A DNA stretch of 64,000 bases from Patescibacteria group bacterium (GTDB lineage: Bacteria; Patescibacteriota; Patescibacteriia; UBA9570; JAHJKD01): positions 74,322-138,321 of the forward strand of contig JAZDOC010000019.1 in assembly GCA_043798935.1 (NCBI GenBank). The letters are read 5' to 3'. Under the pieces are notes generated by a model that had not been told where the DNA came from, did not search any database, and saw only the letters and a program-made list of their open reading frames with translations. The position numbers and the translations under genes are program-made. Numbering within the stretch: the stretch's first letter is position 1; every line of letters begins with the position of its first letter. Shown here piece by piece: positions 9,350 to 63,535 of the stretch.

Positions 9350-9373
9350 TGTTTTAATGGGGAGGAATTATTA

Positions 9374-10489
9374 GTGAATATAAAAATTTTTTTATTACGC
9401 ATTGTTAATAATCGAAATTATCAATTAGGAATAATGGCTGTGCTTTTAGTACTCGGTGCTATTTTAGTATGGCTGGGAGTTTTCTATAGTATTAACAATC
9501 AACCTCAAATTCCACAGCCAGAAATAGCCAAAATTAATACCAATACTAATAAGCATATTGTTCCCAAAAAATATTATCGTCTAACAGATGGCGTAGAAAC
9601 TGATAAAAACAAAACTAATCGTTTTCCTTTAGCTGTTATGATAGAAAATTTAGCCAGTAGCGAAGTTCGTCCACAATCTGGCTTAAATGATGCTGAAATT
9701 GTTTATGAAGTTATTGTTGAAGGTGGTATTACCAGATTTTTAGCAATTTATTCATCTGAAACCGAAATAAAAAAAATCGGGCCAGTGCGTAGTGCAAGAA
9801 ACACATTTTTAGAATTTGTTTCCGAATATGACGCTCTATATATACATGCCGGAGGCAGTCCAAACGCACTTCAAGCCATTGATGGTTTAAAAATCAATGA
9901 TTGTTCAGGCTTATCATCTGATGGACGTTTTTATTGGCGTGATCAACAATTTTTTGCACCTCATAATTTATTTACTTCTTCACAATTACTCACATACGCA
10001 TTACGCGATAAAAATTTACTTTCTTTAAACAGCAACTTCACTAGCTGGCAATTCAAAAATGATGAAGATGAAAATTCAAAAATTGAAAATTCAAAATTAA
10101 TCAACAACATTGAAATTGATTTTTCTGAACCTAATTATGCCGTAAAATGGGAATATAATCCTAAAAAAAATAATTATTTACGTTTAAATGGTGGTCAAAA
10201 ACATACTGATGCTCTAACCGGCAAACAACTAACTGCAAAAAATGTTATTATCGAAATTGTACCGCCGGCAACTTCAATTGACGATGAAGGACGCGTTGAT
10301 TTTTCTGTAACCGGCAGTGGTCCAGCTATCATTTTTCAAGATGGTAAAAAAATCAGTGGTACTTGGGAAAAATCATCACGCACTGAACGGACTCTTTATT
10401 TTAATGAATCCCACAAAGAAATTGAATTTAACCGCGGAAAAATTTGGATAGAAATATTACCAGCTGATCGTAGTTATACAACAAGTTAA
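9374..10489 (+). CDS. DUF3048-like (YerB family) membrane-anchored protein, tandem paralog 2
   Basis: 371 aa. GTG start preceded by a strong SD (GGGGAGG at 9358-9364). Same conserved blocks as paralog 1 (NRFPLAVMIENLASSEVRPQSGLNDAEIVYEVIVEGGITRFLAIY ... APHNLFTSSQLL). Confidence 0.55.
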   Translation: MNIKIFLLRIVNNRNYQLGIMAVLLVLGAILVWLGVFYSINNQPQIPQPEIAKINTNTNKHIVPKKYYRLTDGVETDKNKTNRFPLAVMIENLASSEVRPQSGLNDAEIVYEVIVEGGITRFLAIYSSETEIKKIGPVRSARNTFLEFVSEYDALYIHAGGSPNALQAIDGLKINDCSGLSSDGRFYWRDQQFFAPHNLFTSSQLLTYALRDKNLLSLNSNFTSWQFKNDEDENSKIENSKLINNIEIDFSEPNYAVKWEYNPKKNNYLRLNGGQKHTDALTGKQLTAKNVIIEIVPPATSIDDEGRVDFSVTGSGPAIIFQDGKKISGTWEKSSRTERTLYFNESHKEIEFNRGKIWIEILPADRSYTTS

Positions 10490-10501
10490 TGTTTTTTAAT
10501 T

Positions 10502-13500
10502 ATGATTAAATTGAAAATCGATAAAATTTTTCAATTTGTATTGTTTATTGGACTATTTTTCTTTCCTTTAATTATTCAAGCTGAAAATATAAACAATATT
10601 CGAGATAAACTTGTTTACACCGATGGTCAGATTTTAATAAAATTTAAAAATTCCAGAATTCCATTAACCAGTAAAAAAGGATTGGCGCGTTTTAAAACGC
10701 TAATCAAAGTCAATAAACTAAATCCAATTAAATTATTACCAAAAAAAAATATTGCTCTTATTAAATCATTAGATAAAAATACTGAACAATTAATTAATGA
10801 GCTTAAAGATAATTCCAATATTCAATCAGTTCAACCGAACTATATTTACCACATTGAATCTCAAACCTCTCCTTGGGGAATAGGCTCCGATGGCACAAAT
10901 GCCACCTTGGCTAAAAGCACTAATCATGTAAGCGGTGCTGGTATTATTGTTGCCGTAATCGATACGGGTGTGAATTATAATCACGAAGATCTGGATCAAA
11001 ATATGTGGATCCCAGCCACAGGCAAATGTTTAATTAGTAGTGCGCTTATATCGTGTCCAAATCACGGCTGGGATTTCATTGATTCAAGCGATAATGATCC
11101 ATTCGATGATAACGGACATGGCACTCATGTAGCCGGAACCATTGCCGCCGAAGATAATGACCTTGGAGTGATTGGTGTAGCTCCTGATGCCCAAATTATG
11201 GCTCTAAAGGCTTTAGATGAAAACGGCTCGGGCTCGTCATCGGATATTATTGAAAGTATAAATTTCGCAGTTGATAATGGAGCTAATATAATAAATTTAA
11301 GTATTGGTGGTTATGAATACGCTTCTCTGGAAAACCAAGCCATAAGTGATGCTTGGGAAGCCGGTATTACAGTGGTTTCAGCGGCCGGTAACGATTCGGA
11401 AAATATCCCTTCATTTCCGGCAGCTTTTGAAAAATCCATTGCTGTTGGAGCTGTTATCGAAAATCAGACGGATAATAACCCGAGTGAAAACATGGATACT
11501 AAATTAGCCTATTTTTCCAATTATGGTTTTAACGATGTAGTTGCACCCGGACTTAAAATATTAAGCACTTTAAACGACGGAACGTATGGATATTATTCTG
11601 GAACATCCATGGCAACACCGCATATTAGCGGCGTCGTCGCGCTTATTAAGGAAGCTCATCCAAGCTTTACCCCCGATCAAATCAAAACAGTTTTAAAAGC
11701 TACAGCTACAGATTTAGGACAAACAGGCAGTGACCGCTATTTCGGTTCTGGTTTAGCCGATGCTTTATCAGCTACTGCATCTACGATTAGTAACCACATT
11801 ATATTAACCGCTGACTTTTCTGAAATTAATGAAGAAACTGGAGAAACCACTTCAAACACAAGCTCCATAGTAGCTGATGGTTTATCTACAACTAAAATTC
11901 GTGCAATTATTATTGATGAAAATGGAAATTTTGTTAATAATCAAACATTATCATTATCGGTTGATAATGGTTCTCTAAGTGCTTATTCAATTATAACCGA
12001 TGAGATTGGACAAGCTGAATTTACTTATACCTCTTCAACGCAATCTGGCGTAGCTACTGTATGGGTTGATGCCGGATCATACGGAACAAGCAGATTAAAA
12101 ATTACTCTAGCCAATATATTACTCGTATCTGATAGTGTTGAATATTACTATAATAATAATTTTTCCTGGTACTATGAAACCATGCTTAAAAATGCACAAG
12201 TTAAGTACTCACGCTGGGATACGGCTAATGGCGATAATGAAGATTTTCCAACACTCGATTATTTAGAGAAGTTTGATCTGGTAATTTGGTACACCGGCGA
12301 TCATTATATAGAAGAATACCCGCAAAATATTTTAATTTCATATTTAGAAAATAATGGGAAATTACTATTAACCGGTCCGGATCAGCTTTATCAAGGAAAA
12401 GACATAACAACATTGTATACTTTATTAAAGGCTCAATATGCCGGCGATTTTGCTAGCGACTTTTCTGAAATTAATGGAGTAAATCTTTTAGTAAATGAAA
12501 ATTATTTTCTGGGCTTAATTGATGATTATAATTTTTTTCCTGATTATATAAACATTCTTGACAGTGGAGAAGAAATTGCAACTTATAAAAGCGGAGAGAG
12601 TGCCGGTGTAATTTATGATGGCAACTACAAAACAATGTTCTTACCATTTGGAATCGAGTCTATTTATTATAGTGTTGATCGAGATTCTTTATGGTCTAAA
12701 ATATCTGCGTTTTTTATGCCAATTACCGGTTTAGTGTTAAATTCTAATAATCAAAATTCAGTTGAAATAAGCTGGGACCAATATAGTGATCAAGAAGTAT
12801 CAACATATTTAGTCAGCTACGGTACAGATTCTCTGGCCGAAAATCTAGGTGAATTAGAAAGTAATGAAACTTCGATAACTCTAAACAATCTTGAGGCTGA
12901 TACTGCTTATTATGTAAAAGTATCGGCAAATTTAGAAAGCGGAACTAACACTGGATATTCAAGCATTCTAAATTTTACCACTCGGCCGAATGCTCCCACT
13001 AATTTAAAAGTTGATTCCCGCCAAGTTAAAAATATAACTTTAAAATGGACTGCGCCGTCTGATAATATTTCATCGTATATAATCAGTTATGGTACGAATG
13101 TCGGTGCTGATAATATTAAAACCGTTACCTCAACAACCACCAGCAAAAAAATTTCGTCTTTAAAAAGTAATTTGGCATATTATTTTAAAATATCGTCTCT
13201 GCAAGACGAATTTACGACTGATTACAGTATTGTTAAAAAAATTCGAACTCTGCCGGCCAAAGTTAATAGTAAAAAAATTAAAATTAAAAAGAGAGAAACT
13301 AATCAAATAAAAATAAAATGGGAACCAGTAAGAGGCAAAAATTTACAATATGTGATAAGATTAATGACAGCTAAAGGAAAAAAGATTAAAATAATTAGAA
13401 CCACAAAACACACAAAATTAATCACCGGTCTTAAATCCAATAAATCATATAAAATTAAAATTCGAGCCAAGCATAAAACTAGCGGCTTACTAGGTAAATA

Positions 13501-13531
13501 TTCTAAAATAAAAAAAATTAAAACAATATAA
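10502..13531 (+). CDS. secreted S8 subtilisin-like serine protease with three C-terminal fibronectin type III domains
   Basis: 1009 aa with a signal peptide. Catalytic triad blocks in D-H-S order (VAVIDTGV; HGTHVAGTIAA; GTSMATPHISG). Three ~90-aa Fn3-like repeats follow; the last is extremely Lys-rich. Confidence 0.85.
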   Translation: MIKLKIDKIFQFVLFIGLFFFPLIIQAENINNIRDKLVYTDGQILIKFKNSRIPLTSKKGLARFKTLIKVNKLNPIKLLPKKNIALIKSLDKNTEQLINELKDNSNIQSVQPNYIYHIESQTSPWGIGSDGTNATLAKSTNHVSGAGIIVAVIDTGVNYNHEDLDQNMWIPATGKCLISSALISCPNHGWDFIDSSDNDPFDDNGHGTHVAGTIAAEDNDLGVIGVAPDAQIMALKALDENGSGSSSDIIESINFAVDNGANIINLSIGGYEYASLENQAISDAWEAGITVVSAAGNDSENIPSFPAAFEKSIAVGAVIENQTDNNPSENMDTKLAYFSNYGFNDVVAPGLKILSTLNDGTYGYYSGTSMATPHISGVVALIKEAHPSFTPDQIKTVLKATATDLGQTGSDRYFGSGLADALSATASTISNHIILTADFSEINEETGETTSNTSSIVADGLSTTKIRAIIIDENGNFVNNQTLSLSVDNGSLSAYSIITDEIGQAEFTYTSSTQSGVATVWVDAGSYGTSRLKITLANILLVSDSVEYYYNNNFSWYYETMLKNAQVKYSRWDTANGDNEDFPTLDYLEKFDLVIWYTGDHYIEEYPQNILISYLENNGKLLLTGPDQLYQGKDITTLYTLLKAQYAGDFASDFSEINGVNLLVNENYFLGLIDDYNFFPDYINILDSGEEIATYKSGESAGVIYDGNYKTMFLPFGIESIYYSVDRDSLWSKISAFFMPITGLVLNSNNQNSVEISWDQYSDQEVSTYLVSYGTDSLAENLGELESNETSITLNNLEADTAYYVKVSANLESGTNTGYSSILNFTTRPNAPTNLKVDSRQVKNITLKWTAPSDNISSYIISYGTNVGADNIKTVTSTTTSKKISSLKSNLAYYFKISSLQDEFTTDYSIVKKIRTLPAKVNSKKIKIKKRETNQIKIKWEPVRGKNLQYVIRLMTAKGKKIKIIRTTKHTKLITGLKSNKSYKIKIRAKHKTSGLLGKYSKIKKIKTI

Positions 13532-34358: not shown

Positions 34359-36413
34359 TTAGAAGCCAATCTGATCGGCAATTTGCTTCATAGCATTTAG
34401 GGCTATTTCTAAAAATTCATCCGTGCTTAAACCTAGTTTTTTACACTCTTTAATGGTCTCGCGATTAACTTTAGCCGCGAAAGCTTTTTCTTTTAGCTTT
34501 TTCTTTAATGATTTAAGTTCAATATTTTGAATTTGTTTATCTGGTCGCACCAAGGCTGAGGCATAAATTAAACCAGTCACAGCTTCACCGCACCGTAATG
34601 CAAAATCCAATAATACTTCCGGTTCTAAGGCTTTATTATCTTGATAATTATGCGCTAAAATAGCATTAATCAATTCTTGAGGATAATTAGCTTCTTTTAA
34701 ATACTGCGAGCCAATAACAGCATGCTTTTCTATTTTATTTTCGATTTCTTCCCAGTCAATATCGTGAAGTAAGCCAGTTGCACTCCATAAAGCCTCATTT
34801 TGATTAAGTGCTTTAGCTAATGCCCCTAGCACTGCCTCGGCTTCTAAACTATGAAAAATGTTTGGCTGTTTATGAACGTGAGAAGTAAGCAATTTAAAAG
34901 ATTGTTCGCGACTAATTGAAAAGTTATTACCGGGAGATAATTTTTTTACGTGTAAGTTGATATTATTTTTTGGACGCAGAAGTGGAAACAGAACACATTC
35001 GCGAACAGGTTTATTCATTAAAAAAGCAAATACTCTTTCGGACAAACCAAACCCACAAGTTGGTGGCATGCCATATTCTAATGCTTCTACAAACTCGCTA
35101 TCGTGCATTTGGGCTTCACTGTCGCCAGCCTCGCGAAGCTTGGCTTGTTCATTAAAACGGGCGGCTTGATCAATAGGATCATTAAGCTCGCTATATCCAT
35201 TTCCTAATTCACTGCCAGCAATAATAACTTGGAATCTTTCTACTAAACGCTGGTCATCGCTCTTTCTTTTAGCAAGTGGCGAAACTTCAACTGGATGATT
35301 AATTAAAAAAACCGGACCAGCTATTTCTTTGCGCACTTGTTTCCATAAGGAATCAATTAAACGCCCTTTACCAACTTTATTATTTACATCAATTTTAAGT
35401 TCTTTACATTTGGTTTGTAATTCCTCAATACTGGCTGTTAGTACATCGATTGAAAATTTTTCTTTAATACTAGTTACATAATCTATTCTCCCCCACTCTT
35501 TACTTAAATCAATATGAAAATTTTTAATATCAAATTTTAAAGTTTGAAAAGTTTTAAAAATAACTTTCTTAAACATATCTTCCACCAATTTCATACCATC
35601 ATCATAGTTTGCATAAGCCATATAAAATTCCATTTGAGTATAATCCTGTAAATGCTCAGCATCGATGCCTTCATTTCGGAATTGACGTCCAATTTCGAAT
35701 GTTCTTTCTAGACCACTAACCATTAACCTTTTTTGCCATAACTCACCCATGGAAATACGTAAGTACAAATCGATGTCTAGCGCGTTATGATGCGTAATGA
35801 AAGGTTCAGCATCGGCGCCACCAGGCGTAGCTTCTAAAACTGGCGTTTCCACTTCTAAAAAATTGTGTCCAATCAAAAAATCTCTGATACTTTGCCAAAA
35901 GACTGCTTTTTTCCGAAAAATATTTTGTAATTCAGAATCTAATAAAATATCTAAATATCTTTTTCGATATCTTGTTTCTTCGTCTTTAATTCCATGCCAT
36001 TTATCTGGAAGCGGCTGTAAAGCTTTACTAAGAATTGAATAACTAGCAACAAGTAATGATTTTTCGCCTTTATGTGTAATAAAAGCCATACCGGAAACTT
36101 CTAGAATATCGCCAATATCGATATTTTTTAAATTTTTATATTTTTCGCTTCCGAGTTTATCTTGCTGAAAAGCTATTTGTAATTCATGACTCTCATCTTT
36201 TAAATTCATGAATGTTAGTTTTCCATGAGTTCGCTGACTCATGATGCGACCACTGACTGTTGCCAAGTTACTTTCAAATTCGTTAAACCTATCTAAAAAA
36301 TAACCAATACTAATGTGTGGTAAACATTTACTGGGATACGAATTAATATTTTGTTTTTTTAGATTATCTAGTTTTATTAGACGATCTTGTTTTTCGGATT
36401 GTATTATTGTCAT
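34359..36413 (-). CDS. lysS: lysyl-tRNA synthetase (class II) fused to a C-terminal HD-domain phosphohydrolase
   Basis: 684 aa. Residues ~1-490 are LysRS (OB anticodon-binding domain; class II blocks FLEVETPVLE, FEIGRQFRNEG, GFGLSERV). Residues ~500-684 carry an HD pattern (H...LLHDID...H...H...D). Confidence 0.9.
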   Translation of the reverse strand: MTIIQSEKQDRLIKLDNLKKQNINSYPSKCLPHISIGYFLDRFNEFESNLATVSGRIMSQRTHGKLTFMNLKDESHELQIAFQQDKLGSEKYKNLKNIDIGDILEVSGMAFITHKGEKSLLVASYSILSKALQPLPDKWHGIKDEETRYRKRYLDILLDSELQNIFRKKAVFWQSIRDFLIGHNFLEVETPVLEATPGGADAEPFITHHNALDIDLYLRISMGELWQKRLMVSGLERTFEIGRQFRNEGIDAEHLQDYTQMEFYMAYANYDDGMKLVEDMFKKVIFKTFQTLKFDIKNFHIDLSKEWGRIDYVTSIKEKFSIDVLTASIEELQTKCKELKIDVNNKVGKGRLIDSLWKQVRKEIAGPVFLINHPVEVSPLAKRKSDDQRLVERFQVIIAGSELGNGYSELNDPIDQAARFNEQAKLREAGDSEAQMHDSEFVEALEYGMPPTCGFGLSERVFAFLMNKPVRECVLFPLLRPKNNINLHVKKLSPGNNFSISREQSFKLLTSHVHKQPNIFHSLEAEAVLGALAKALNQNEALWSATGLLHDIDWEEIENKIEKHAVIGSQYLKEANYPQELINAILAHNYQDNKALEPEVLLDFALRCGEAVTGLIYASALVRPDKQIQNIELKSLKKKLKEKAFAAKVNRETIKECKKLGLSTDEFLEIALNAMKQIADQIGF

Positions 36414-37012: not shown

Positions 37013-38953
37013 TTACCGCGAAAAATACCAATCCAAAACTTCATATACTGCTGGTAAAGCCGCTTCGGTTCCATCGCCACCTTCATCAATAATTGCAGTA
37101 ATTACTATCTCTGGATTATCATACGGAGCAAAGGCTGTAAACCAGGAATGATTTTTCCCATCACCGCCATGTTGGGCTGTACCGGTTTTTGCACCTGAAC
37201 TCACTGACAAATTAGTAAGCGCTTTAGCACTTCCCCATACTGCTGCAGCTTTCATGCCTTGTTTTACAATATTTAAATTTTGTTGATTAACAAAATTACT
37301 ATTTATCACTTGCTCGCCTATCATCTCTTGTACCTCACCAGTTTCATTCACAATTTCTTTTACTAAATGTGGTCGATACAATGTTCCACCATTAGCGATA
37401 ACAGCTGTGTAATCAGCAACTTGTAAAGGCGTTACTAAAATATCACCCTGCCCGATAGATGCATTATAAGTATCGCCAATATACCAATTTTCTGCTTTAA
37501 CGGTTTTCTTCCAGTCTTTAGTCGGCAAAAAACCAGTTTTCTCGCCGGCAATGTCGATACCGGAAATTATATTTAGTCCAAACAATTCGGCATAATGATC
37601 GATTCGCTCAATTCCTAGCCCCCCCGATACTAAATTAGTTGCCGCATCGTAATATCCTCCACCAGCCAAATAGAAAAAAGTATTTACCGATTCTGCAATA
37701 GCTTTAATGACATCTGTTTCTCCGTGTCCGCCAGCCTTCCAATCCGGAAAAAACCACTGATTAACCGGAATCCCTCCCGTACTATTTACGGTAGTATTCT
37801 TAGTAATTACATTTTCTTGTAATGCGGCCGAAGCAACAATCAATTTAAATGTCGAGCCCGACGGATATTCACCTGAAACCGCTTTATTATACAATGGTTT
37901 ATTTGGATCGTTTAATAATTTTTGATATGCATCATAATCAATACCATTAATAAAATCATTACTGTTAAAACCGGGCCAACTAACTAGTGCTAAAACTTCT
38001 CCATTTCTGGGATCAAGTGCTATAAGCGCTCCTCCTTTTGCATCCTGCTCATGGCTATATTTTTCAATCGCCTCGTAAGCCTTCTTTTGTAATTCCAAAT
38101 CAATTGATAGAATTAAATCATCTCCTGGTTCCGGATCTTTTTGAGCAATCACTTTTATCTCATTTCCGGAAGAATCCACTTCAACCTGCTTCTTACCATA
38201 TACTCCTTTTAGTGTAGATTCGTAATACGATTCAATACCAGATTTGCCAATATTATCGCTGTTTAAATATTCACCTTTTTCATATTCTTTAATTTCATCA
38301 ACATTGATTCGTCCGATATAACCCATAGCATGAGACATGGCCAACGGTTCAATGTACTCTCGTTTAGCAACCGGCAAACAATGCACACCTGATAAACTTG
38401 GTTCCAATATCATTAATTTTATAGCTTGATCATACTTTAAATTTGAAGCAATCTCTGTTTCACCCCACAGTGACCCAGCTGCAAGTTTTGATTTAATTTC
38501 ATTAATTTTAATATTTGTAATTGAATTCAATGCTTGAAAAATCTTCTTTTTTTGTTGAGCATCGCTGGGTAAATCGCCTTTTATTATTGTTAATGTAAAA
38601 TCAGGAATATTATTAACCAAAAGATTTCGATTGCGATCATAAATTAAACCACGTGGCGCGGCTATGGTTTCAATTCTAATGCGATTACCTTCAGCAACGC
38701 TCAAGTAATATTCTCCTTTATAAATTTGTAAATAACACAACCGACATAAAACCAAAATTACAACGCCAATAATAATAAATATTGCAATATTTGTTTTCCA
38801 TCGTGAAATAGATAAATTTAAAAATTCATCCTGTTCAATTTTTTTATATCCAATATCTCCAATTACGCTTTTTTTATAATAGATATTTAAATTAGTATCT
38901 TTGACATCGTCACTAAAAAAGAAATTTTTATTTGTGGGAATTTTATTTTTCAT
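37013..38953 (-). CDS. mrdA: penicillin-binding protein 2 (class B PBP, elongasome transpeptidase)
   Basis: 646 aa. N-terminal TM; SxxK (SGSTFK), SxN (ESVN) and KTG (AKTGTA) motifs. Immediately downstream of mreD. Confidence 0.9.
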   Translation of the reverse strand: MKNKIPTNKNFFFSDDVKDTNLNIYYKKSVIGDIGYKKIEQDEFLNLSISRWKTNIAIFIIIGVVILVLCRLCYLQIYKGEYYLSVAEGNRIRIETIAAPRGLIYDRNRNLLVNNIPDFTLTIIKGDLPSDAQQKKKIFQALNSITNIKINEIKSKLAAGSLWGETEIASNLKYDQAIKLMILEPSLSGVHCLPVAKREYIEPLAMSHAMGYIGRINVDEIKEYEKGEYLNSDNIGKSGIESYYESTLKGVYGKKQVEVDSSGNEIKVIAQKDPEPGDDLILSIDLELQKKAYEAIEKYSHEQDAKGGALIALDPRNGEVLALVSWPGFNSNDFINGIDYDAYQKLLNDPNKPLYNKAVSGEYPSGSTFKLIVASAALQENVITKNTTVNSTGGIPVNQWFFPDWKAGGHGETDVIKAIAESVNTFFYLAGGGYYDAATNLVSGGLGIERIDHYAELFGLNIISGIDIAGEKTGFLPTKDWKKTVKAENWYIGDTYNASIGQGDILVTPLQVADYTAVIANGGTLYRPHLVKEIVNETGEVQEMIGEQVINSNFVNQQNLNIVKQGMKAAAVWGSAKALTNLSVSSGAKTGTAQHGGDGKNHSWFTAFAPYDNPEIVITAIIDEGGDGTEAALPAVYEVLDWYFSR

Positions 38954-39452
38954 AAAAAATCATGTGCCGCTTTAAATAATTTCGAATCGAGTAAACAAAA
39001 ACTGTAGCCATTACATTTAACCCGCATTGCCAAAAAATATCAATGAAATAAATATGAAAAATATCGATCCCAAATCGAAATTGTTTTACAATATAGCTTA
39101 AAATTAGTAAATCAAAATTATAAAAAACAATCACTAGAATAATCAGTAATAATATCGACCAGATAGAATTATATGATATTGTGTGCTTAGCTAATAAATA
39201 AACCGTTATAACAGCTAAAAACAAAGATGTTGTAATTAAACCAAAATTCAAACCAGAATATATATCTAAATATATTCCTGATATCAGTGTTAATACTAAA
39301 CCATATGTAAATGAATTATAGAGCATGCAAGCGATGACAAAGGCACTTACCAAGTTCATTTTATTTGCCCATAATCCAACACTACCAAAACTAGTTTGAA
39401 TAATTAATAAACTTATAAAAATTAATAAATATAAAATATTTCGTCGCCACAT
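38943..39452 (-). CDS. mreD: rod shape-determining protein MreD
   Basis: 169-aa polytopic membrane protein between mreC and pbp2. Confidence 0.6.
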   Translation of the reverse strand: MWRRNILYLLIFISLLIIQTSFGSVGLWANKMNLVSAFVIACMLYNSFTYGLVLTLISGIYLDIYSGLNFGLITTSLFLAVITVYLLAKHTISYNSIWSILLLIILVIVFYNFDLLILSYIVKQFRFGIDIFHIYFIDIFWQCGLNVMATVFVYSIRNYLKRHMIFYEK

Positions 39453-39458
39453 ATAAAA

Positions 39459-40256
39459 TTATTTTACAATCGACACTACTGATAAACGACTAAAATCGAT
39501 AAGTGGGATAATATCGGCTTCCTTGAACAAATCGCCAGGTTTTTCTGTAATATTTTCAATTTGACCAATAATTAATCCTTTGGGAATATTATTCTCTATG
39601 CCCGAAGTAATAACAATTGATTTATCAGTAATTTCATCTTGTTTTGGAATTAATTCCATGGCCATACTCAACCCATGCTTCCCTTTTATAATCCCAGGCG
39701 TATTTAACTCGTTTTCAATTTGTGCAGCAATTTCACTAACATTACTAGTAATCAATAAAACTTTAGCAGTATTAGCTGATACTTCGTCTATTTTACCGAT
39801 CAAAACTCCATTTCCAGCGATGACCGGAAAGCCAACTTTAATGCCTACGTTTTCGCCTTGGTTAATGACCACAATTTGCTTGTTCGACCCACTATATTTA
39901 CTAATAATTTTTGCAGTTTGGTATGATAATTGATTATCTTCTAAAAAAGTAATCTGCTGTTTTAAAATTTCATTTTCGTCTATATATGTTTCTAGTTCAG
40001 AATTCTTTTTAACTAAATCATTAACATCTTGTTTAAGCTGATTGTTTTCAGAAATTAATTCATTTTTATCATAGAGCGTTTCACTATCAGATAAATATAT
40101 ACTAAATCGATACAAAGGAACTTGTAAAGGTTTTAATGCGGAAGTCAATAGGCCTTCAACAGGTTTTAAAATATTTATGTAATGTAAAACAATAAACAGT
40201 ATAATGACAACTGAAAAAATGACAATTTTTGCCCAGACTGATCGTTCATTATACAT
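39459..40256 (-). CDS. mreC: rod shape-determining protein MreC
   Basis: 265 aa. N-terminal TM, coiled-coil, C-terminal beta domain. Directly downstream of mreB. Confidence 0.75.
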   Translation of the reverse strand: MYNERSVWAKIVIFSVVIILFIVLHYINILKPVEGLLTSALKPLQVPLYRFSIYLSDSETLYDKNELISENNQLKQDVNDLVKKNSELETYIDENEILKQQITFLEDNQLSYQTAKIISKYSGSNKQIVVINQGENVGIKVGFPVIAGNGVLIGKIDEVSANTAKVLLITSNVSEIAAQIENELNTPGIIKGKHGLSMAMELIPKQDEITDKSIVITSGIENNIPKGLIIGQIENITEKPGDLFKEADIIPLIDFSRLSVVSIVK

Positions 40257-40258
40257 AA

Positions 40259-41311
40259 TTAATCTAAAATATTACCTTCGCTGGTTAAGGACAATGCATT
40301 TTTAAACAATTCCATGTCTTCTAAAACAATTCCGGTTCCTCGAACAACAGCCGTTAATGGATCGTCAACTATTTTTACAGGTACTTGAGTGGCGCGTTCG
40401 ATCCTAATGTCTAACCCGGTTAGCAAGGCTCCGCCACCAGATAAAACCAGTCCTCTTTCAAAAATGTCGGCTACTAATTCGGGAGGTGTAGATTCAATAG
40501 TAGATTTAACATTATCAATAATAGTATTAATTGTTTTATTCATGGCTTCGTGAACATGTTCATTATTGATTGTAATTTCCTTCGGTAAACCAGTTAATAA
40601 GTCTCGACCTTTTGCCGTAGTTTCAATTATTTCAGTTTGTTCAATAACATTTCCAATTTTAATTTTAATATCTTCAGCAGTTCGCTCTCCTATTAATAAA
40701 TTGAATTTATCGCGGCAATAATTAATAATATCCTGATTTAATTCATCTCCGGCTAATCGTAAAGACCGCCAATTAACTACACCACCTAATGAAATTACAG
40801 CAATTTCTGTTGTACCTCCGCCAATATCAATTATCATGTTACCAATCGATTCCTGTACTGGCAGCCTGGCGCCAATCGCTGCGGCCATGGGTTCTTCGAT
40901 TAAAAAAACTTGTCGGGCACCGGCGTTTAAAGCTGCGTCTTCAGCGGCTTTTCTTTCGACTTCGGTAACGCCAAGCGGAATTGCCATAACTACTCGCGGA
41001 CGCGGTAAAAAATTTGCTGATTCGCGATGTACCTTTTCGATAAAATGTTTCATCATTTTTTCAGCAGCTTCAAAATCTGAAACCACGCCGTCGGCTAAAG
41101 GTTTAATAGCCACAATATATGGGGGTGTTTTACCAATCATTTTTCTAGCTTCTTCCCCCACTGCTAAAATTTGATCAGTTCGCTGATTAATTGCCACAAT
41201 AGACGGTTCATTAATAACAATACCACGATCTTTTGTGTAAACCAAAGTATTGGCCGTTCCTAAATCAATACCCAAATCTTTTGAAAATCTGCCTAAGAAA
41301 CCTTTAAACAT
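40259..41311 (-). CDS. mreB: rod shape-determining protein MreB (actin homolog)
   Basis: 350 aa with the actin-fold phosphate-1 block GIDLGTANTLVY. Its 5' end overlaps the proS stop by 19 nt. Confidence 0.95.
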   Translation of the reverse strand: MFKGFLGRFSKDLGIDLGTANTLVYTKDRGIVINEPSIVAINQRTDQILAVGEEARKMIGKTPPYIVAIKPLADGVVSDFEAAEKMMKHFIEKVHRESANFLPRPRVVMAIPLGVTEVERKAAEDAALNAGARQVFLIEEPMAAAIGARLPVQESIGNMIIDIGGGTTEIAVISLGGVVNWRSLRLAGDELNQDIINYCRDKFNLLIGERTAEDIKIKIGNVIEQTEIIETTAKGRDLLTGLPKEITINNEHVHEAMNKTINTIIDNVKSTIESTPPELVADIFERGLVLSGGGALLTGLDIRIERATQVPVKIVDDPLTAVVRGTGIVLEDMELFKNALSLTSEGNILD

Positions 41312-48030: not shown

Positions 48031-49038
48031 TTATTTTGTAGATAATAAAGATCTTTTATAGGATTCCAAATTTTCTAAAGCCACGCCCGTACCTTTAACA
48101 ACGTTTTGTAGGGGTTCATCGGCTAAATAAGCTGGAACATCTATTTCGCGAGATAATAACTCGTCTAGATTTCGAAGTTGGCCTGAACCACCGGAAATAA
48201 CCATGCCTTTATCGATAACATCAGCTGATAATTCAGGCGGTGTCTCTTGCAGGACTGATTTTACAGCTTGAATAATGCCATTTAAATCATCTTGGATGGC
48301 CTCAGTGATATCGTCTGACGTTACAGTTACTGTTCGTGGTAATCCGGAAATAATGTCACGCCCACGGACTTCCATAGATAACGGATCACTTAGTGGAAGT
48401 GCTGAACCAATTTTAATTTTTAATTCTTCAGCGGATCGCTCACCGATCGCTAAATTATATTTTTTTCTCACAAATTCAGAAATAGCATAATCAAATTTTG
48501 TTCCTCCAATTCTAACCGAAGTATTAGCCACGATTCCACCTAATGAAATTACCGCAATTTCTGATGTGCCACCACCAATTTCAATTATCATATGTCCTGA
48601 AGCACTGCCAATTGGAATATTTGCCCCGATGGCTGAAGCAATAGGTTGTTTTATAATAAACGCAGCTTTAGCGCCAGCTTGGATTGTCGCATCGATAACA
48701 GCTCTTCTTTCGGTGGATGTGATCCCCGCTGGTACAGCAATCATTACTTCGGGTTTTAAAATTCTAATTCCACCCAATGCTTTATTAATAAAATAACGCA
48801 ACATACTTTCAGTAGTACGATAATCAGCTATCACGCCGTCTTTTAAAGGACGCGATGCAATAATAGTATCTGGTGTGCGACCAAGCATATCACGAGCCTC
48901 GTTACCCACAGCCAATACCTTACGGTCCTGAATTGAAACCGCCACTACTGATGGCTCGTTAATGGCAATGCCACGCTTAGGTACATAAACTAATGTATTA
49001 ACCGTACCTAAATCTATACCAATTTTCTTAACAAACAT
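48031..49038 (-). CDS. second MreB/Mbl-family actin homolog embedded in the glycan operon
   Basis: 335 aa. GIDLGTVNTLVYV plus all actin-fold blocks. About 55% identical to MreB at 40259..41311 by eye. Confidence 0.85.
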   Translation of the reverse strand: MFVKKIGIDLGTVNTLVYVPKRGIAINEPSVVAVSIQDRKVLAVGNEARDMLGRTPDTIIASRPLKDGVIADYRTTESMLRYFINKALGGIRILKPEVMIAVPAGITSTERRAVIDATIQAGAKAAFIIKQPIASAIGANIPIGSASGHMIIEIGGGTSEIAVISLGGIVANTSVRIGGTKFDYAISEFVRKKYNLAIGERSAEELKIKIGSALPLSDPLSMEVRGRDIISGLPRTVTVTSDDITEAIQDDLNGIIQAVKSVLQETPPELSADVIDKGMVISGGSGQLRNLDELLSREIDVPAYLADEPLQNVVKGTGVALENLESYKRSLLSTK

Positions 49039-57777: not shown

Positions 57778-58185
57778 TTAACGTTTAGACCACTGTGGAG
57801 CGCGACGAGCACGTCTTAAGCCCGGTTTCTTTCTTTCTTTTTTACGCGAATCTCTTTTAAGTAATCCTTGTTTTTTTAAATCAATTTTTAATTCTTCATT
57901 AAATATAACAAGGGCTCTGGCTAAAGCCAAAGAGACACTATCGGCCTGAGCACTTTTACCACCACCGGAGGTTTTTATTGTAGCTGAAACCTGAATTGCT
58001 AAATTAGTAAGTTTTAAAGGTTTAACAGCGCGATTAGATAGTTCGGTTGTTGAAAAATATGTTTTAATATCTTTATCATTAACCAAGATTTTTCCATCGC
58101 CTTGAGTAAATAATCGTACGCGACTAATAGCTGTTTTTCTTCTACCGACAGTAGCAATATAAGATTTTTTTATAATTTTAGCCAT
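57778..58185 (-). CDS. rpsI: 30S ribosomal protein S9
   Basis: 135 aa with the C-terminal ...KPGLRRARRAPQWSKR signature. Confidence 0.95.
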   Translation of the reverse strand: MAKIIKKSYIATVGRRKTAISRVRLFTQGDGKILVNDKDIKTYFSTTELSNRAVKPLKLTNLAIQVSATIKTSGGGKSAQADSVSLALARALVIFNEELKIDLKKQGLLKRDSRKKERKKPGLRRARRAPQWSKR

Positions 58186-58186
58186 A

Positions 58187-58519
58187 TTATTGGATAGTTA
58201 ATCTTTTCAAATATTCTTTTCTTAATTTATTCTTTGGCAACATATTATATAAAGCTTTTTTTAATAACTCTTTTCGAGGCATGTCTATTACTTTCTTTGT
58301 TTTTATACCACCTGGATATCCAGAATATCGATAATAAACTTTGTCGGCCTCTTTCTTTCCAGTAAGTTTTAATTTATCAATATTGATTACTTTGACTTTA
58401 TCGCCGGTAATTTTATTAGGTTGATAATCGGCTTTATTTTTACCCATTAAAACAACCGCTACTTGAGATGCGATTCTTCCTAATGCGATATCGGTTGCGT
58501 CGATGATTATTTCTTTCAT
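58187..58519 (-). CDS. rplM: 50S ribosomal protein L13 (short form)
   Basis: 110 aa. N-terminal IIDATDIALGRIASQVAVVLMGK block. Conserved rplM-rpsI pair. Confidence 0.85.
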   Translation of the reverse strand: MKEIIIDATDIALGRIASQVAVVLMGKNKADYQPNKITGDKVKVINIDKLKLTGKKEADKVYYRYSGYPGGIKTKKVIDMPRKELLKKALYNMLPKNKLRKEYLKRLTIQ

Positions 58520-58521
58520 AA

Positions 58522-58872
58522 TTATAATATTTCAATTTGAGTTAATGATGCACCGTCACCTTTGCGCACACCAAGTTTAGTTAAGCGAGTATAACCGCCC
58601 TGTCGATCTTTAAATTGGGGTGCAATTTTAGAAACTAACTCACGCACGGCTTTTTCATAGCCCAAATCTTTCATTAGTTCACGTTCGCTTGCTAGGGTGC
58701 CTTTTTTAGCTTTAGTAATCATTTTTTCAACTACTTGGCGTAATACTTTTGCTTTAGCCTCGGTAGTTTTGATTTTTTTGGATAATATTAAGCTAATAGC
58801 CTGAGTTTTAATAAGTGCTCGACGTGGGCCTTGCTTTCTGTCTAAAATGACTGTTTTTTTTCTGTGTCTCAT
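58522..58872 (-). CDS. rplQ: 50S ribosomal protein L17
   Basis: 116 aa with MRHRKK...LDRKQGPRRALIK... typical of L17. Follows rpoA. Confidence 0.9.
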   Translation of the reverse strand: MRHRKKTVILDRKQGPRRALIKTQAISLILSKKIKTTEAKAKVLRQVVEKMITKAKKGTLASERELMKDLGYEKAVRELVSKIAPQFKDRQGGYTRLTKLGVRKGDGASLTQIEIL

Positions 58873-58875
58873 ATT

Positions 58876-59595
58876 TTATTTTTTACCTTTACTTTCTTTT
58901 TCTTCACTGACAGTGAATGCATCCCCTACTAAAGAAAAATGATCGACTAAAATTTTAGCTGCTTCACTTACGGCTGCTTGCGGGGTAATTGTACCGTCGG
59001 TTTTTATATCTAAAATTAATTTATCATAGTTTGTCATTTGTTCAACACGGACATGTTCAATATGATAATTAACATTTTTTATCGGAGTATATATAGCATC
59101 AATAGCAATATATCCAACTTCCATTTTTTCTTTTTCACGAGCTTCAACTGGTACATAGCCACGACCTTTTTGAACTGTTATTTTCATTTCTAAGGTAGCA
59201 TCTTTGGCAGTTATGGTTGCTATTTTCTGATCAGTGTTTACAATTTCCACTTGTGAATTTTTAGTGAAATCACCAGCAGTAATTATTTTTGCGCCTTTAA
59301 CTTTTAATTCAATTTCTACTGGTTCATCGCTATAAACTTTGAATCGTAACTGTTTAATATTTAAGATAATCTCGATAACATCTTCTTTTACGCCATTAAT
59401 AGTTGAAAATTCATGATCAACTCCTTTTATTTTAACAGCCGTGGCCGCAGCACCAGGTAAAGATGATAATAAAACTCTTCTTAGTGCATTGCCTAAAGTG
59501 GTACCATAACCAGGGTAACAAGATGAAATGGTAACCTCGCTGTGATTAGTTTCCAGCTCTTTGGACTTAATTTGCGCGGGTAATTTAATTTCCAT
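58876..59595 (-). CDS. rpoA: DNA-directed RNA polymerase alpha subunit, N-terminal domain only (no alpha-CTD)
   Basis: 239 aa that aligns to the alpha-NTD dimerisation/assembly domain (GYGTTLGNALRRVLLSSLPGAA...). It stops 3 nt before rplQ with no linker or CTD. Confidence 0.85.
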   Translation of the reverse strand: MEIKLPAQIKSKELETNHSEVTISSCYPGYGTTLGNALRRVLLSSLPGAAATAVKIKGVDHEFSTINGVKEDVIEIILNIKQLRFKVYSDEPVEIELKVKGAKIITAGDFTKNSQVEIVNTDQKIATITAKDATLEMKITVQKGRGYVPVEAREKEKMEVGYIAIDAIYTPIKNVNYHIEHVRVEQMTNYDKLILDIKTDGTITPQAAVSEAAKILVDHFSLVGDAFTVSEEKESKGKK

Positions 59596-59625
59596 ATTTT
59601 TATAAATTTATCAATATTTATTTTA

Positions 59626-60255
59626 TTATCGAGAATAATACTCAATGATAAGACTCATTGAAATAGTTTTGTGAAGTTCAGCAATATTAGGTTCACCTTT
59701 GATAACAATTTGCAAATTAGTTTTATCGACTTGGATCCATTCCGGAATTTCAACTTTTTCGATCGTTTTTAAAATTTCCTGCCAATGACTCTTTTTAATG
59801 AAGCTTTCTTTAACAGCTACTTTATCACTTTTTTTAATCTGACATGATGGAATATTGCATCGTCGACCATTAACTAAAATATGGCCGTGATTTACTAATT
59901 GACGAGCTAAACGCCTAGAGCTAGCCAGACCGGCGCGATAGACAATAGTATCTAAACGATGTTCCAATAAATTAAAAAAGTTGTCAGCTGTGTTACCGGC
60001 TTTTTTTGTAGCGGTTACATAGTAATTACTAAATTGTTTTTCTAATAATCCGTATAATTTTTTAGCTTTTTGTTTTTCACGCAATTGGATACCGTAACCA
60101 GATAATCTTGGTTTACCTTTACTACCATGCATGCCAGGAACAAAATTTCTTTTAATCATGGCACATTTGGAAGTATTACATCGTTCACCTTTAAGAAATA
60201 ATTTTTCTCCTTCGCGACGACATTGTTTACATTGTGGTGATAAGTTTCTACCCAT
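59626..60255 (-). CDS. rpsD: 30S ribosomal protein S4
   Basis: 209 aa. N-terminal Zn-ribbon-like CKQCRREGEKLFLKGERC and an S4 domain. Confidence 0.95.
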   Translation of the reverse strand: MGRNLSPQCKQCRREGEKLFLKGERCNTSKCAMIKRNFVPGMHGSKGKPRLSGYGIQLREKQKAKKLYGLLEKQFSNYYVTATKKAGNTADNFFNLLEHRLDTIVYRAGLASSRRLARQLVNHGHILVNGRRCNIPSCQIKKSDKVAVKESFIKKSHWQEILKTIEKVEIPEWIQVDKTNLQIVIKGEPNIAELHKTISMSLIIEYYSR

Positions 60256-60284
60256 ATTTGAAAGTTAATAATTGATAATAAAAA

Positions 60285-60692
60285 TTAAACGCGTCGTGGT
60301 TTTTTTGCTCGACAACCGTTATGCGGGATTGGCGTAATATCGTTAATACCGGTAATTGCTAAACCAGAAGCTGTTAATCCGCGCAAAGCACCATCACGAC
60401 CGCTACCAATTCCTTTGACATAAACTTCAACATCTTTTAAACCCATTTCTTTTACTTCTTCGACTAATTTTTTAATAATTGTACCAGCGGCATAAGGCGT
60501 GGCTTTTTTAGGACCTTTAAAACCCATCCGACCGGCACTGTTCTGAGCAATAACTCCGCCATTTTGATCGGTAAAACTAATGATTGTGTTGTTATATGTA
60601 GCTAATACATAAACTCGCCCTTGAGTGACAACCTTTCGTTTTTTCTTTTTCTTTTTAACGATTTTTTTACTTGACTTTGCAACTTCTGCCAT
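60285..60692 (-). CDS. rpsK: 30S ribosomal protein S11
   Basis: 135 aa with full-length S11 similarity. Confidence 0.95.
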   Translation of the reverse strand: MAEVAKSSKKIVKKKKKKRKVVTQGRVYVLATYNNTIISFTDQNGGVIAQNSAGRMGFKGPKKATPYAAGTIIKKLVEEVKEMGLKDVEVYVKGIGSGRDGALRGLTASGLAITGINDITPIPHNGCRAKKPRRV

Positions 60693-60734
60693 ATTTTTTT
60701 AAATTCTAAATTAATATTTGATAAATAAATTCTA

Positions 60735-61127
60735 TTATGTTTTTTGCGCTGAAACTTTTCGACCTGAACCCATAGTAACTCTTTTATTACCACGGACAGT
60801 TCGATTATTTGTTTTTGTGCGTTGGCCACGAACTGGTAAACTTTTACTATGGCGCGAACCACGGTAGCAACCAATCTCTTTTAAACGTTTAATATTGGCT
60901 AGAACTTCTCTTTTTAATTCACCTTCAATTTTCATGTTTTTCTCGATTGATTGACGAAGTAAATTAACTTCTTCAGCTGAAAGATCTTTGGTTCGAGTAT
61001 CGGATTTGATTTTAGTTTGCTTTAATATTTTTTTTGCGGTTGTGGCGCCAATACCATAAATGTAGGTTAAGGCCACTTCTATTCTTTTTTCATTCGGTAA
61101 AGTTACACCGGCTATTCTTGCTGCCAT
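60735..61127 (-). CDS. rpsM: 30S ribosomal protein S13
   Basis: 130 aa starting [11 protein letters not shown]. Confidence 0.95.
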
Positions 61128-61213
61128 ATTTATTTAATTTTCAATTTTTAATTTTAGTTGAATTATAATTTAAAACTATGTTAAACAATATATTTAACAT
61201 TTATTTAATTGGG

Positions 61214-61327
61214 TTATCCCTGTCTTTGCTTGTGACGAGGATTTTTACAAATTACTACCACTCGACCTTTGCGACGAGTAGTATGGCAATCTTTACAAAT
61301 TTTTTTGGCTGATGCTTTTACTTTCAT
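61214..61327 (-). CDS. rpmJ: 50S ribosomal protein L36
   Basis: Not in the ORF track. Manual translation gives [37 protein letters not shown] (37 aa, C-x2-C...C...H zinc ribbon) between rpsM and infA. Confidence 0.85.
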
Positions 61328-61330
61328 AAG

Positions 61331-61561
61331 TTATTTTCGATAAATAATTCTTCCTTTGGTTAAATCGTAAGGGCTCATTTCTATAATTACTTTATCTCCG
61401 GCTAATATACGGATTCTGTGCATTCGCATGCGCCCGGATAAATGCGCTAAAATTTCTTGTTTATTTTCTAAGGTTACCTTAAAACAAGCATTAGGTAATA
61501 GTTCATCAACTACTCCTTCAATTTCAATAAACCCTTTTTTATTAGTTTTGATTTCAGACAT
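61331..61561 (-). CDS. infA: translation initiation factor IF-1
   Basis: 76 aa with an S1-like OB fold ([43 protein letters not shown]). Confidence 0.95.
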
Positions 61562-61661: not shown

Positions 61662-61689
61662 ATTATAACAGATTTTTATATACAGTCAA
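61662..61689 (-). promoter_or_regulatory. near-consensus sigma70 promoter of the alpha ribosomal operon (TTGACT-N16-TATAAT)
   Basis: On the - strand, TTGACT (61689-61684), a 16-nt spacer, then TATAAT (61667-61662). Predicted leader of ~95 nt to the infA ATG. Confidence 0.5.
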
Positions 61690-61723: not shown

Positions 61724-63484
61724 TTATTCTAATACAGCTTTTATTCTTCGCACTCCAGATGATGAAGATTCTTCTTTTTTAATAACAAAATGTCCTAATT
61801 CACTTGTGTTTAATACATGTGGCCCACCACAAATTTCTTTAGAAAAATTACCAACTTCATAAACTTTAACCCGATTTCCATATTTGCTAGTAAATAAACC
61901 AATTGCACCATGTGATTTAGCGTTATCGACGCTCATTTCCTTACAATTAATGGATAAATTTCTATTAATTGTTTCATTTACTAAATCTTCGACTTGTTTA
62001 ATTTGTTCGGGCGTTAATTTACTCGGATGAGTAAAATCGAACCTCAAGCGCTGATCATTAATATTGCTACCTTTTTGCTGAACATGATCTCCGAGTATGC
62101 GTCGTAATGATGAATGTAGAATATGAGTGGTGGTATGATATTTTTTACTCATTTCGCTGGCATCGGCTAAACCACCGGCAAATTTGCCCTTACTGGCTTC
62201 TTGTGATTTTTTTTGATGATCATTTAATCTTTCGCAGAATCCGCTTTCATCGACTTTTAAATCTTGTTTTAAGGCTTCTTCTTTAGTCATTTCAATGGGA
62301 AAACCGTATGATTGATATAAATCAAAAGCCGCTTTACACGAAAAAATTCCATTTCTAACCTCTGTTTGCAAATATTCATTAAATTTTCTTAAACCATTAT
62401 TTAAGGTTTTTCTGAACTTTTCTTCTTCTTGGGTTAATTCCATAACAATTTCCGATCTCTTTAAATCTAATTCTTCATAAACATCTTTATATTCATCAAT
62501 AATTACTTTTGCAACGTCACCACAAAAATCATTTTCAATGCCAAGTTTTTTACCTTCTCTTATGGCCCGGCGAATTAAGCGCCTTAATATATAGCCCTGA
62601 TCCATGTTTGAGGGCGATATACCATCCATCATTATAAATGTGGCGGCTCGTAGATGATCGGCGATGATTTCCATGGAAGTATCATTTTGAGCTTGCGCCA
62701 GCTCTTTAATTTTATTCATGATGGGTAAAAACAAATCTGTTTCATAAGCTTCTTGCTTGCCGTTCATGACTGCCGTAATTCGCTCTAACCCCATACCGGT
62801 ATCAACATTTTTTTGATCTAATTTAGTAAAAGCACCATCTACCTGTTTATTAAATTCCATAAACACATTATTCCAAATTTCAACATATTTACCACATCCA
62901 CAAGACGGATTACACTCGGGGCCGCAAGCTAATAAACCAGTATCATAAAAAATTTCCGTATCTGGTCCGCAGGGTCCGGTTTTTCCAGCTGGTCCCCACC
63001 AATTTTCTTTTTTTCCAAAATAATAAATCCTCTCTTCAGGGATTCCCATGATATCGCGCCAAATATGATATGTCTCTTCGTCTTTTAAAACAGTCTCATC
63101 GCCGACAAAAACTGTGACGCTAATTTTATCTTTTTCCAGTGCTAACCATTTACTATCGGTTAAAAATTCCCAACTCCAAGTAATGGATTCTTTTTTAAAA
63201 TAATCGCCCAATGACCAATTTCCCAGCATTTCAAAAAAAGTTAAATGCCACCTATCGCCAACATCATCAATATCGCCAGTACGAATGCATTTTTGACAAC
63301 TTGTTAAACGTTTTCCGTCTGGGTGTGACTCGCCCATTAAAAATGGAACTAATGGGTGCATGCCAGCCGTGGTAAATAAAACCGTGGGATCATTTTCCGG
63401 AATCAATGAAGCTGAAGGGATAATGGCGTGCCCCTTAGATTTAAAAAATTCTAAATATTTTTTTCTGATTTCTTTTGATGTCAT
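61724..63484 (-). CDS. alaS: alanyl-tRNA synthetase, compact form lacking the C-Ala domain
   Basis: N-terminal class II core (IRKKYLEFFKSKGHAIIPSASLIPENDPTVLFTTAGM...). Editing-domain HxxxH (HTTTHILH) and CxxxH (CGGPHV) are present. Ends ...GVRRIKAVLE. Start moved to MTSKEIRKKY. Confidence 0.85.
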   Translation of the reverse strand: MTSKEIRKKYLEFFKSKGHAIIPSASLIPENDPTVLFTTAGMHPLVPFLMGESHPDGKRLTSCQKCIRTGDIDDVGDRWHLTFFEMLGNWSLGDYFKKESITWSWEFLTDSKWLALEKDKISVTVFVGDETVLKDEETYHIWRDIMGIPEERIYYFGKKENWWGPAGKTGPCGPDTEIFYDTGLLACGPECNPSCGCGKYVEIWNNVFMEFNKQVDGAFTKLDQKNVDTGMGLERITAVMNGKQEAYETDLFLPIMNKIKELAQAQNDTSMEIIADHLRAATFIMMDGISPSNMDQGYILRRLIRRAIREGKKLGIENDFCGDVAKVIIDEYKDVYEELDLKRSEIVMELTQEEEKFRKTLNNGLRKFNEYLQTEVRNGIFSCKAAFDLYQSYGFPIEMTKEEALKQDLKVDESGFCERLNDHQKKSQEASKGKFAGGLADASEMSKKYHTTTHILHSSLRRILGDHVQQKGSNINDQRLRFDFTHPSKLTPEQIKQVEDLVNETINRNLSINCKEMSVDNAKSHGAIGLFTSKYGNRVKVYEVGNFSKEICGGPHVLNTSELGHFVIKKEESSSSGVRRIKAVLE

Positions 63485-63535
63485 AAATATTTTTATTTCC
63501 CCCAATTCATTGGGGGTCAAAAAATTAATTATATT

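Follow-up and report, generated by a model that had tools for sequence, protein, structure and literature searches.

A Patescibacteria RNA polymerase alpha subunit without a C-terminal domain, and the variable tails of its CTD-less relatives

The dimer of the N-terminal domain of the bacterial RNA polymerase alpha subunit (alpha-NTD) nucleates the assembly of beta and beta'. [quoted passage not shown] The alpha-CTD is generally regarded as a universal bacterial feature, and a 2025 study calls it "ubiquitously present across all Bacteria" (PMC12531629). Several polymerases without it have been described. In Escherichia coli, as summarized in PMC8321222 from Igarashi and Ishihama 1991 and Hayward et al. 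1991, the truncated alpha(1-235) assembles into RNA polymerase and supports basal transcription but no UP-dependent or CTD-dependent activation. In Bacillus subtilis, RpoA-del replaces the full-length alpha in the RNA polymerase, which binds DNA, and growth goes on for hours at about half the rate (doubling time 1.9 h instead of 1.0 h), and ribosomal and secondary-carbon genes are less strongly expressed (PMC4495994). Natural CTD-less rpoA genes were described in Candidatus Hodgkinia and Candidatus Tremblaya (Rangel-Chavez et al., PLoS One 2021, PMC8321222), and the Euglena chloroplast rpoA is cited there as a CTD-less alpha of the bacterial type (Sheveleva et al. 2002, in PMC8321222). The same paper states in a single sentence, given without CPR data, that the loss "is also present in Parcubacteria" (PMC8321222); in its preprint the loss "has also been reported" (10.1101/2020.09.07.285775), and the main text of the source cited for it, Nelson and Stegen 2015 (PMC4508563), never mentions the polymerase. 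With Hodgkinia, Tremblaya, the Euglena plastids and the Parcubacteria mention, a natural alpha without CTD is a known kind.

The gene studied here encodes such an alpha. It lies in a 64-kb stretch of Patescibacteria DNA, called the window in the following, and its open reading frame occupies 58876..59595 on the minus strand, from an ATG start to the TAA stop codon at 58876-58878 that is included in this span. The encoded protein has 239 aa, and an identical protein is present in NCBI on a 175,932-bp contig (P0001) as [quoted passage not shown]. Residues 1-224 (58924..59595, minus strand) form a complete alpha-NTD, in which the PF01193 dimerisation domain is split around the PF01000 insert domain. 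Residues 225-239 (58879..58923, minus strand) form a short, little conserved tail, DAFTVSEEKESKGKK, which stands at the position of the inter-domain linker, is modeled with low confidence and ends in a lysine-rich tip. In Pfam, the insert domain PF01000 (Rpb3/RpoA insert) is matched over its full profile (1-119 of 119) by residues 54-170 with an E-value of 1.8e-34, and PF01193 by residues 28-220 flanking the insert with an E-value of 6.7e-25; PF03118, the alpha-CTD, has no Pfam match in the protein. The rpoA equivalog model TIGR02027 is matched with 280 bits (cutoff 227.8) over positions 3-218 of 298, and NF003519 with 291.5 bits (cutoff 277) over positions 11-237 of 320. Alignments with solved alpha chains end at about residue 229 of the query (residue 237 in E. 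coli), where the NTD ends and the linker starts, and the reading frame closes 10 residues past this position. The AlphaFold2 model has a mean pLDDT of 91.1, with a drop to about 61 in the last block that is confined to the last ~15 residues. In a Foldseek search of the PDB, its best matches are the alpha-NTD chains of solved RNA polymerases, with TM-scores of 0.82-0.93, an rmsd of 1.5-3 A and E-values down to 1.5e-30; the identity to solved bacterial alphas among the fold-search matches listed is 41-47%. The protein is a complete alpha-NTD and holds nothing else that folds, which bears out the earlier note that had read it as an NTD-only RpoA. Among 61 homologues, the GNALRRVLLSSLPG motif shows no or almost no variation, and the NTD alignment has 41 invariant columns, including those of GNALRRVLLSS.

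The combination of PF01193 and PF01000 as an assembly platform, with no tethered alpha-CTD-like domain, is also seen in archaeal Rpo3 (subunit D) and in eukaryotic Rpb3/AC40. Models for the archaeal subunits D and L match the protein weakly, and the score above the TIGR02027 cutoff, the identity to solved alphas and the position in an rpsD-rpoA-rplQ operon place it unambiguously with bacterial RpoA; the resemblance is one of convergent reduction and not of ancestry. Compared with the engineered truncations of E. coli and B. subtilis, the reading frame ends at the same position (query 229, E. coli 237), but those were laboratory constructs in CTD-dependent hosts, whereas the form described here is the sole alpha gene seen and the wild type of its lineage. 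As in Hodgkinia and Tremblaya, extremely reduced insect endosymbionts that are likewise bacteria with small genomes and few transcription factors, the NTD is kept and the CTD is gone. Unlike in some Hodgkinia, in which the NTD is eroded, it is fully intact and strongly conserved. The Euglena chloroplast gene, as it is described in the citing paper, differs from the present one in being organellar and highly divergent.

The gene lies in the canonical alpha-operon position. Directly upstream, separated by a 30-nt gap, is rpsD (S4; 59626..60255, minus strand), and downstream follows rplQ (L17; 58522..58872, minus strand), which encodes 116 aa and is complete (Pfam 1-96 of 97). As had been noted before, only 3 nt separate the two genes: the TAA at 58876-58878 is followed by AAT and then by the rplQ ATG at 58872. 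Since the L17 frame is complete, it leaves a CTD neither room nor a reading frame. The whole operon, infA-rpmJ-rpsM-rpsK-rpsD-rpoA-rplQ-rplM-rpsI, covers 57778..61561 on the minus strand, and this order is also found in a relative (L081/L082). It includes an rpmJ (L36) that was missing from the list of open reading frames, which encodes 37 aa at 61214-61327 (minus strand) and starts 3 nt after infA. Between alaS and infA, a strong promoter-like site (TTGACT-16 nt-(TGn)TATAAT; 61662..61689, minus strand) agrees with the consensus in 11 of 12 positions and has an extended -10, making it a candidate promoter of the operon; the DNA upstream of it contains no clear UP element, in what is a single example identified by consensus match only. 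Scans with Rfam (at the gathering threshold) and for tRNAs found no tRNA genes and no Rfam family in the 64-kb window; in particular, the alpha-operon genes are not preceded by a ribosomal-protein leader. The usual tail of the spc operon (secY-adk-map) is absent upstream of infA, where alaS is found instead, likewise in the relative L081. Ribosomal protein L13 (58187-58519, minus strand) has only 110 aa (Pfam 2-112 of 119) and 116 aa in L081; the E. coli protein has about 142 aa. The alanyl-tRNA synthetase (61724-63520, minus strand) has only 598 aa, comprising the catalytic core and tRNA_SAD and ending where the C-Ala region would begin, and its short form is conserved, with 585 aa in the syntenic L081. 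Canonical AlaRS has about 870 aa and a C-terminal C-Ala region.

A run of six A precedes the rpoA stop codon, and homopolymers are error-prone, so that the short frame might be attributed to a sequencing or assembly error, or else to a pseudogene in decay. Against an error stand the complete rplQ 3 nt downstream, the fact that no downstream frame encodes a CTD, and the orthologues, which stop at the same place in independent, syntenic assemblies and in dozens of species. The closest case is a syntenic orthologue (P0005) with 236 aa and 74% identity, which was recovered in two independent assemblies, one of a JGI metagenome and one of an SRA run. In both samples the gene order is alaS-infA-rpsM-rpsK-rpsD-rpoA-rplQ-rplM-rpsI-polysaccharide genes, and in both assemblies rplQ starts a few bases past rpoA. 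As the truncation is conserved across independent assemblies, a sequencing error is excluded. The stop codon, whose reality the earlier note had wanted checked, is real, given this orthologue in two independent samples and the dozens of other CTD-less ones. Decay is at odds with the strong conservation of the NTD, with its 41 invariant columns in 61 sequences. We give an error or a pseudogene a negligible chance; judged by these comparisons, a frameshift or pseudogene is effectively excluded and rpoA appears to be a functional, conserved gene.

A second possibility is that the CTD has moved elsewhere and is now a gene of its own, fused to some other RNA polymerase-associated protein, or part of a second, full-length rpoA paralogue. 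The window represents only 64 kb of the genome, on a contig of at least 176 kb, which leaves room for such a gene, and for the paralogue there is a precedent in Francisella with its two alpha genes, whose alpha1 and alpha2 chains are among the solved structures (6wmp_A, 6wmp_B). A CTD HMM was built from the alpha-CTDs of seven CPR RpoAs and run against the six-frame translation of the 64-kb window, where its best E-value was about 1, i.e. at chance level. The statement that no CTD reading frame lies nearby thus holds for every frame of the window. In 1.28 Mb, consisting of the window and 80 related loci, the same HMM matched the C-terminus of rpoA in 30 loci and never a separate reading frame, and in 50 CTD-less relatives no CTD-like reading frame was found within up to 10 kb on either side of rpoA. 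The search for a stand-alone CTD gene, which the earlier note had proposed for the whole genome, thereby came out empty for the window and for the flanks of up to 10 kb in these 50 relatives, and the finding applies to this range. A second rpoA is disfavored as well, because each of the best 80 loci from GTDB genomes came from a different assembly, so that no genome gave two of them. To our knowledge, the alpha-CTD has no stable interface with the core enzyme and is held by the linker alone, and a free CTD would thus not be recruited to the polymerase, lacking any known means of docking on it. We therefore regard a relocated CTD as very unlikely.

The earlier note had treated the loss as a peculiarity of one organism, and this has to be corrected, since the loss is a widespread and repeatedly evolved trait of Patescibacteria. 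A homologue search covered 5.8 billion proteins, and of its best 120 matches the first 102 measure 214-305 aa and have no PF03118; homologues with a CTD (307-316 aa, among them those of Doudnabacteria) start only at about 63% identity. The comparison of rpoA lengths across relatives, which had been suggested together with the original observation, shows the short form in many of them. When GTDB species-representative genomes were scanned and the rpoA frame was re-called in the best 80 loci, all of which are of the Patescibacteria type, a CTD was present in 30 (rpoA of 307-340 aa) and absent in 50, of which 47 are complete, two are cut at contig ends and one contains Ns. Among the complete rpoA genes of these best 80 loci, 47 of 77 thus lack the CTD. 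CTD-less loci carry labels such as Kerfeldbacteria, Uhrbacteria, Yanofskybacteria, Minisyncoccia and Microgenomatus, and CTD-bearing loci are labeled as Doudnabacteria, a Saccharimonadales, and some Paceibacterota and Parcubacteria. The distribution of the truncated form within Patescibacteria is thus patchy, and sister lineages, Doudnabacteria among them, retain the domain. Several Patescibacteria-type loci (L001, L005, L006, L008, L010, L013, L022, L038, L052 and others) stand under titles of other taxa, such as "uncultured Gammaproteobacteria", "Bdellovibrionales", "Acidobacteriaceae" or "Methylomirabilis", which are probably mislabels by submitters or of bins, or else come from contigs that contaminate a bin.

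An exhaustive HMMER search of 1.84 billion representatives at 50% identity gave a similar picture: among the nearest 150 clusters, 86 are CTD-bearing and 64 CTD-less. Some 20 of the CTD-less representatives exceed ~295 aa, and on inspection most of these show frameshift-like or chimeric C-termini and not real domains, for which reason only 44 (of up to 294 aa) were counted as clean. Some unusual architectures were also met with. A protein of 569 aa (P0121) is an exact tandem self-repeat and probably an assembly artefact, and an apparent RpoA-L17 fusion of 349 aa (L025) was rejected, as its junction consists of masked or N bases translated as "XX". Two further proteins, P0122 (526 aa, NTD-NTD-CTD) and P0158 (664 aa, NTD-CTD-NTD-CTD), appear to join two diverged copies of alpha in tandem within one polypeptide, and it is possible that they are single-chain alpha dimers.

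In a rough neighbor-joining tree of the NTD (227 columns), Fitch parsimony places the CTD at the root and requires at least four changes of its state. The tree thereby suggests about four changes of CTD state, with several independent losses. The RpoA of the window falls into a large CTD-less clade of this rough tree, next to Kerfeldbacteria-like groups and to groups with AT-hooks. To judge from the sequences compared, the truncation is a trait of the lineage and not an error of a single assembly. The trait is widespread and already appears in one sentence on Parcubacteria (PMC8321222), and for this reason the finding is less novel than the earlier note implied.

What stands in the place of the CTD differs between relatives. 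The residues past the last NTD helix were surveyed in 164 CTD-less sequences, a set that was not de-duplicated. Very short tails of up to 20 aa are found in 69 of them and acidic, E/D-rich tails of up to 80 aa in 73; the others are lysine-rich (10), mixed (7) or contain a strict RGRP AT-hook core (5). The CTD-less proteins P0026, P0045, P0019, P0095 (L017) and P0081, for example, have low-complexity tails of 50-80 aa that are strongly acidic or alternate between E and K, and these long tails bring to mind the delta subunit of Gram-positive bacteria with its acidic tail. A lysine-rich clade with Yanofskybacteria and Minisyncoccia labels possesses tails of ~22-24 aa with a conserved V/I-P-K-E start and a lysine-rich run at the end; it consists of L065 (rpoA at 9998-10738), L067 (8123-8863), L044, L060, L064, L074 and L077. 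When the five strict AT-hook tails are joined by P0086, which has KGRP and was classed as basic by the script, and by P0186 from the nearest-cluster set, at least seven CTD-less RpoAs end in an AT-hook: P0086, P0107, P0112, P0186, L030 (rpoA at 9992-10828), L031 (9992-10837) and L056 (8584-9468). Their terminal KK[KR]GRPKK is invariant, the spacers before it have 31-69 aa and are unalignable, and among six of the seven the identity of the NTDs is only 55-72%. The invariance of the motif despite diverged NTDs and unalignable spacers argues for selection on it.

The window tail DAFTVSEEKESKGKK belongs to the short class. Its 15 residues include four lysines and four acidic residues, giving a net charge of about zero, and it contains no GRP core and no K/R-G-R-P-K-K AT-hook motif. 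Most probably it is what remains of the linker between the two domains. The lysine-rich tip, which recurs in the ten closest relatives, might have some function, or it may reflect the A-rich DNA just upstream of the rplQ start in a genome of 32% GC.

These tails raise the possibility that the CTD has been replaced functionally, in that the lysine-tipped tail of the window protein and the lysine-rich and AT-hook tails of relatives contact upstream promoter DNA, non-specifically or via the minor groove of AT-rich DNA, and so make a minimal UP-like contribution. The minor groove of AT-rich DNA, to which AT-hooks bind, is a target of the kind that the alpha-CTD recognizes on UP elements, and the AT-hook of WhiB7 acts just upstream of the -35 element; AT-hooks and UP elements are treated in PMC6954389. 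In WhiB7-like RNA polymerase factors as in the AT-hook relatives, an RGRP core is carried on a flexible tail close to the upstream promoter edge, but the AT-hook of these CPR relatives belongs to alpha itself, at the place of the CTD, and the RpoA of the window has none. In favor of a replacement, all ten closest homologues have short tails with 2-7 Lys/Arg each, and the seven more distant proteins keep their invariant terminal motif in spite of the divergence of their NTDs. On the other hand, a tail of 15 residues with a net charge near zero and no GRP core is a poor candidate, the AAA codons before the rplQ start may at 32% GC be neutral or serve the ribosome-binding region of rplQ, and the two largest tail classes, acidic (73) and very short (69), are incapable of DNA binding. 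A replacement is plausible for the AT-hook and lysine-rich relatives and weak for the 15-residue tail of the window, and as an account that includes the window protein we consider it unlikely.

A broader reading would join loss and substitution: the CTD would have been dropped several times independently in Patescibacteria, with lineage-specific acidic, lysine-rich or AT-hook tails as substitutes and with tail-less forms that work with sigma only. AT-hook and basic tails would then be minimal tethered minor-groove readers that replace UP-element binding, acidic tails would have a role like that of their counterpart on the delta subunit, and the tail-less forms, including the RpoA of the window, would be natural alpha-CTD-null polymerases operating on sigma alone. 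As a whole this is a tentative proposal that we hold to be rather unlikely. If it is true, bacterial promoter recognition would vary along a further axis that has not been described. No paper devoted to alpha-CTD loss in the CPR, its multiple origins, replacement tails or AT-hook RpoAs was found in the searchable literature, in which the extent of the loss (~30-60% of the sampled CPR alpha clusters or species), the independent losses and the tails are not described.

For the gene of the window itself, the best explanation, to which we assign a probability of roughly 85%, is that of a genuine, evolutionarily fixed rpoA that has lost its alpha-CTD, whose product serves as the NTD scaffold only, with promoter recognition via sigma. 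The retained NTD would still dimerise and scaffold beta and beta', and the core RNA polymerase would assemble normally; from the intact NTD and its GNALRR..SS motif, assembly into an alpha2-beta-beta' core should be expected. Such an enzyme would make no alpha contacts to UP elements and would not respond to activators working through the alpha-CTD. With no tethered alpha-CTDs, promoter recognition would have to rest on sigma and its contacts to the -35, the -10 and the extended -10. The consequences for promoter architecture and regulation, which the earlier note had also drawn, we infer from the established biology of the alpha-CTD. The polymerase of this organism is most likely a natural alpha-CTD-null enzyme that recognizes promoters through sigma, in keeping with the small regulatory repertoires of the CPR.

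The promoters predicted in these loci were also compared. The best -35/-10 matches were taken from intergenic regions of at least 110 bp in the 80 loci and the window, and the AT content from -36 to -59 was set against that of the respective intergenic region. The difference is -0.001 +/- 0.016 for CTD-bearing (n=47) and -0.018 +/- 0.014 for CTD-less loci (n=40), and there is no upstream AT signal in either group for these predicted promoters, which lack mapped transcription start sites. In the 64-kb sample, GreA is the sole other transcription protein encoded by reading frames of at least 110 aa, among which there is no HTH regulator.

Apart from the alpha operon, the window contains several genes that deserve mention. 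A class II aminoacyl-tRNA synthetase of the Asp/Lys/Asn type (34359-36413, minus strand; 684 aa) combines PF00152 and an OB anticodon domain with a C-terminal HD phosphohydrolase, which is an unusual fusion. A rod-shape set is distributed over 37013-41311 and 48031-49038 (minus strand) and 5992-7095 (plus strand) and comprises MreC, a weak MreD, PBP2, a RodA/FtsW-family protein and two MreB paralogues (40259-41311 and 48031-49038), a full set that is notable for an ultra-small CPR cell. Two tandem DUF3048 paralogues of 371 aa each (8234-10489, plus strand) are directly followed by an S8 subtilase of 1009 aa with Big_1 and fn3 domains (10502-13531, plus strand), and together they may form a surface or secreted protease module.

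For annotation, it follows that a short RpoA in CPR genomes should not be marked as truncated or partial. The gene of the window adds little beyond another example, and it is the AT-hook and charged tails of its relatives that provide a new, testable lead. For specialists in transcription, the breadth and the repetition of the loss may come as a mild surprise. The CTD-less Patescibacteria offer natural CTD-null polymerases with which promoter architecture, interactions with NusA and activators, and the strength of rRNA promoters can be compared. A large, free-standing bacterial group in which the only visible alpha has no CTD would mean that bacteria with small regulatory repertoires can do without this domain in nature.
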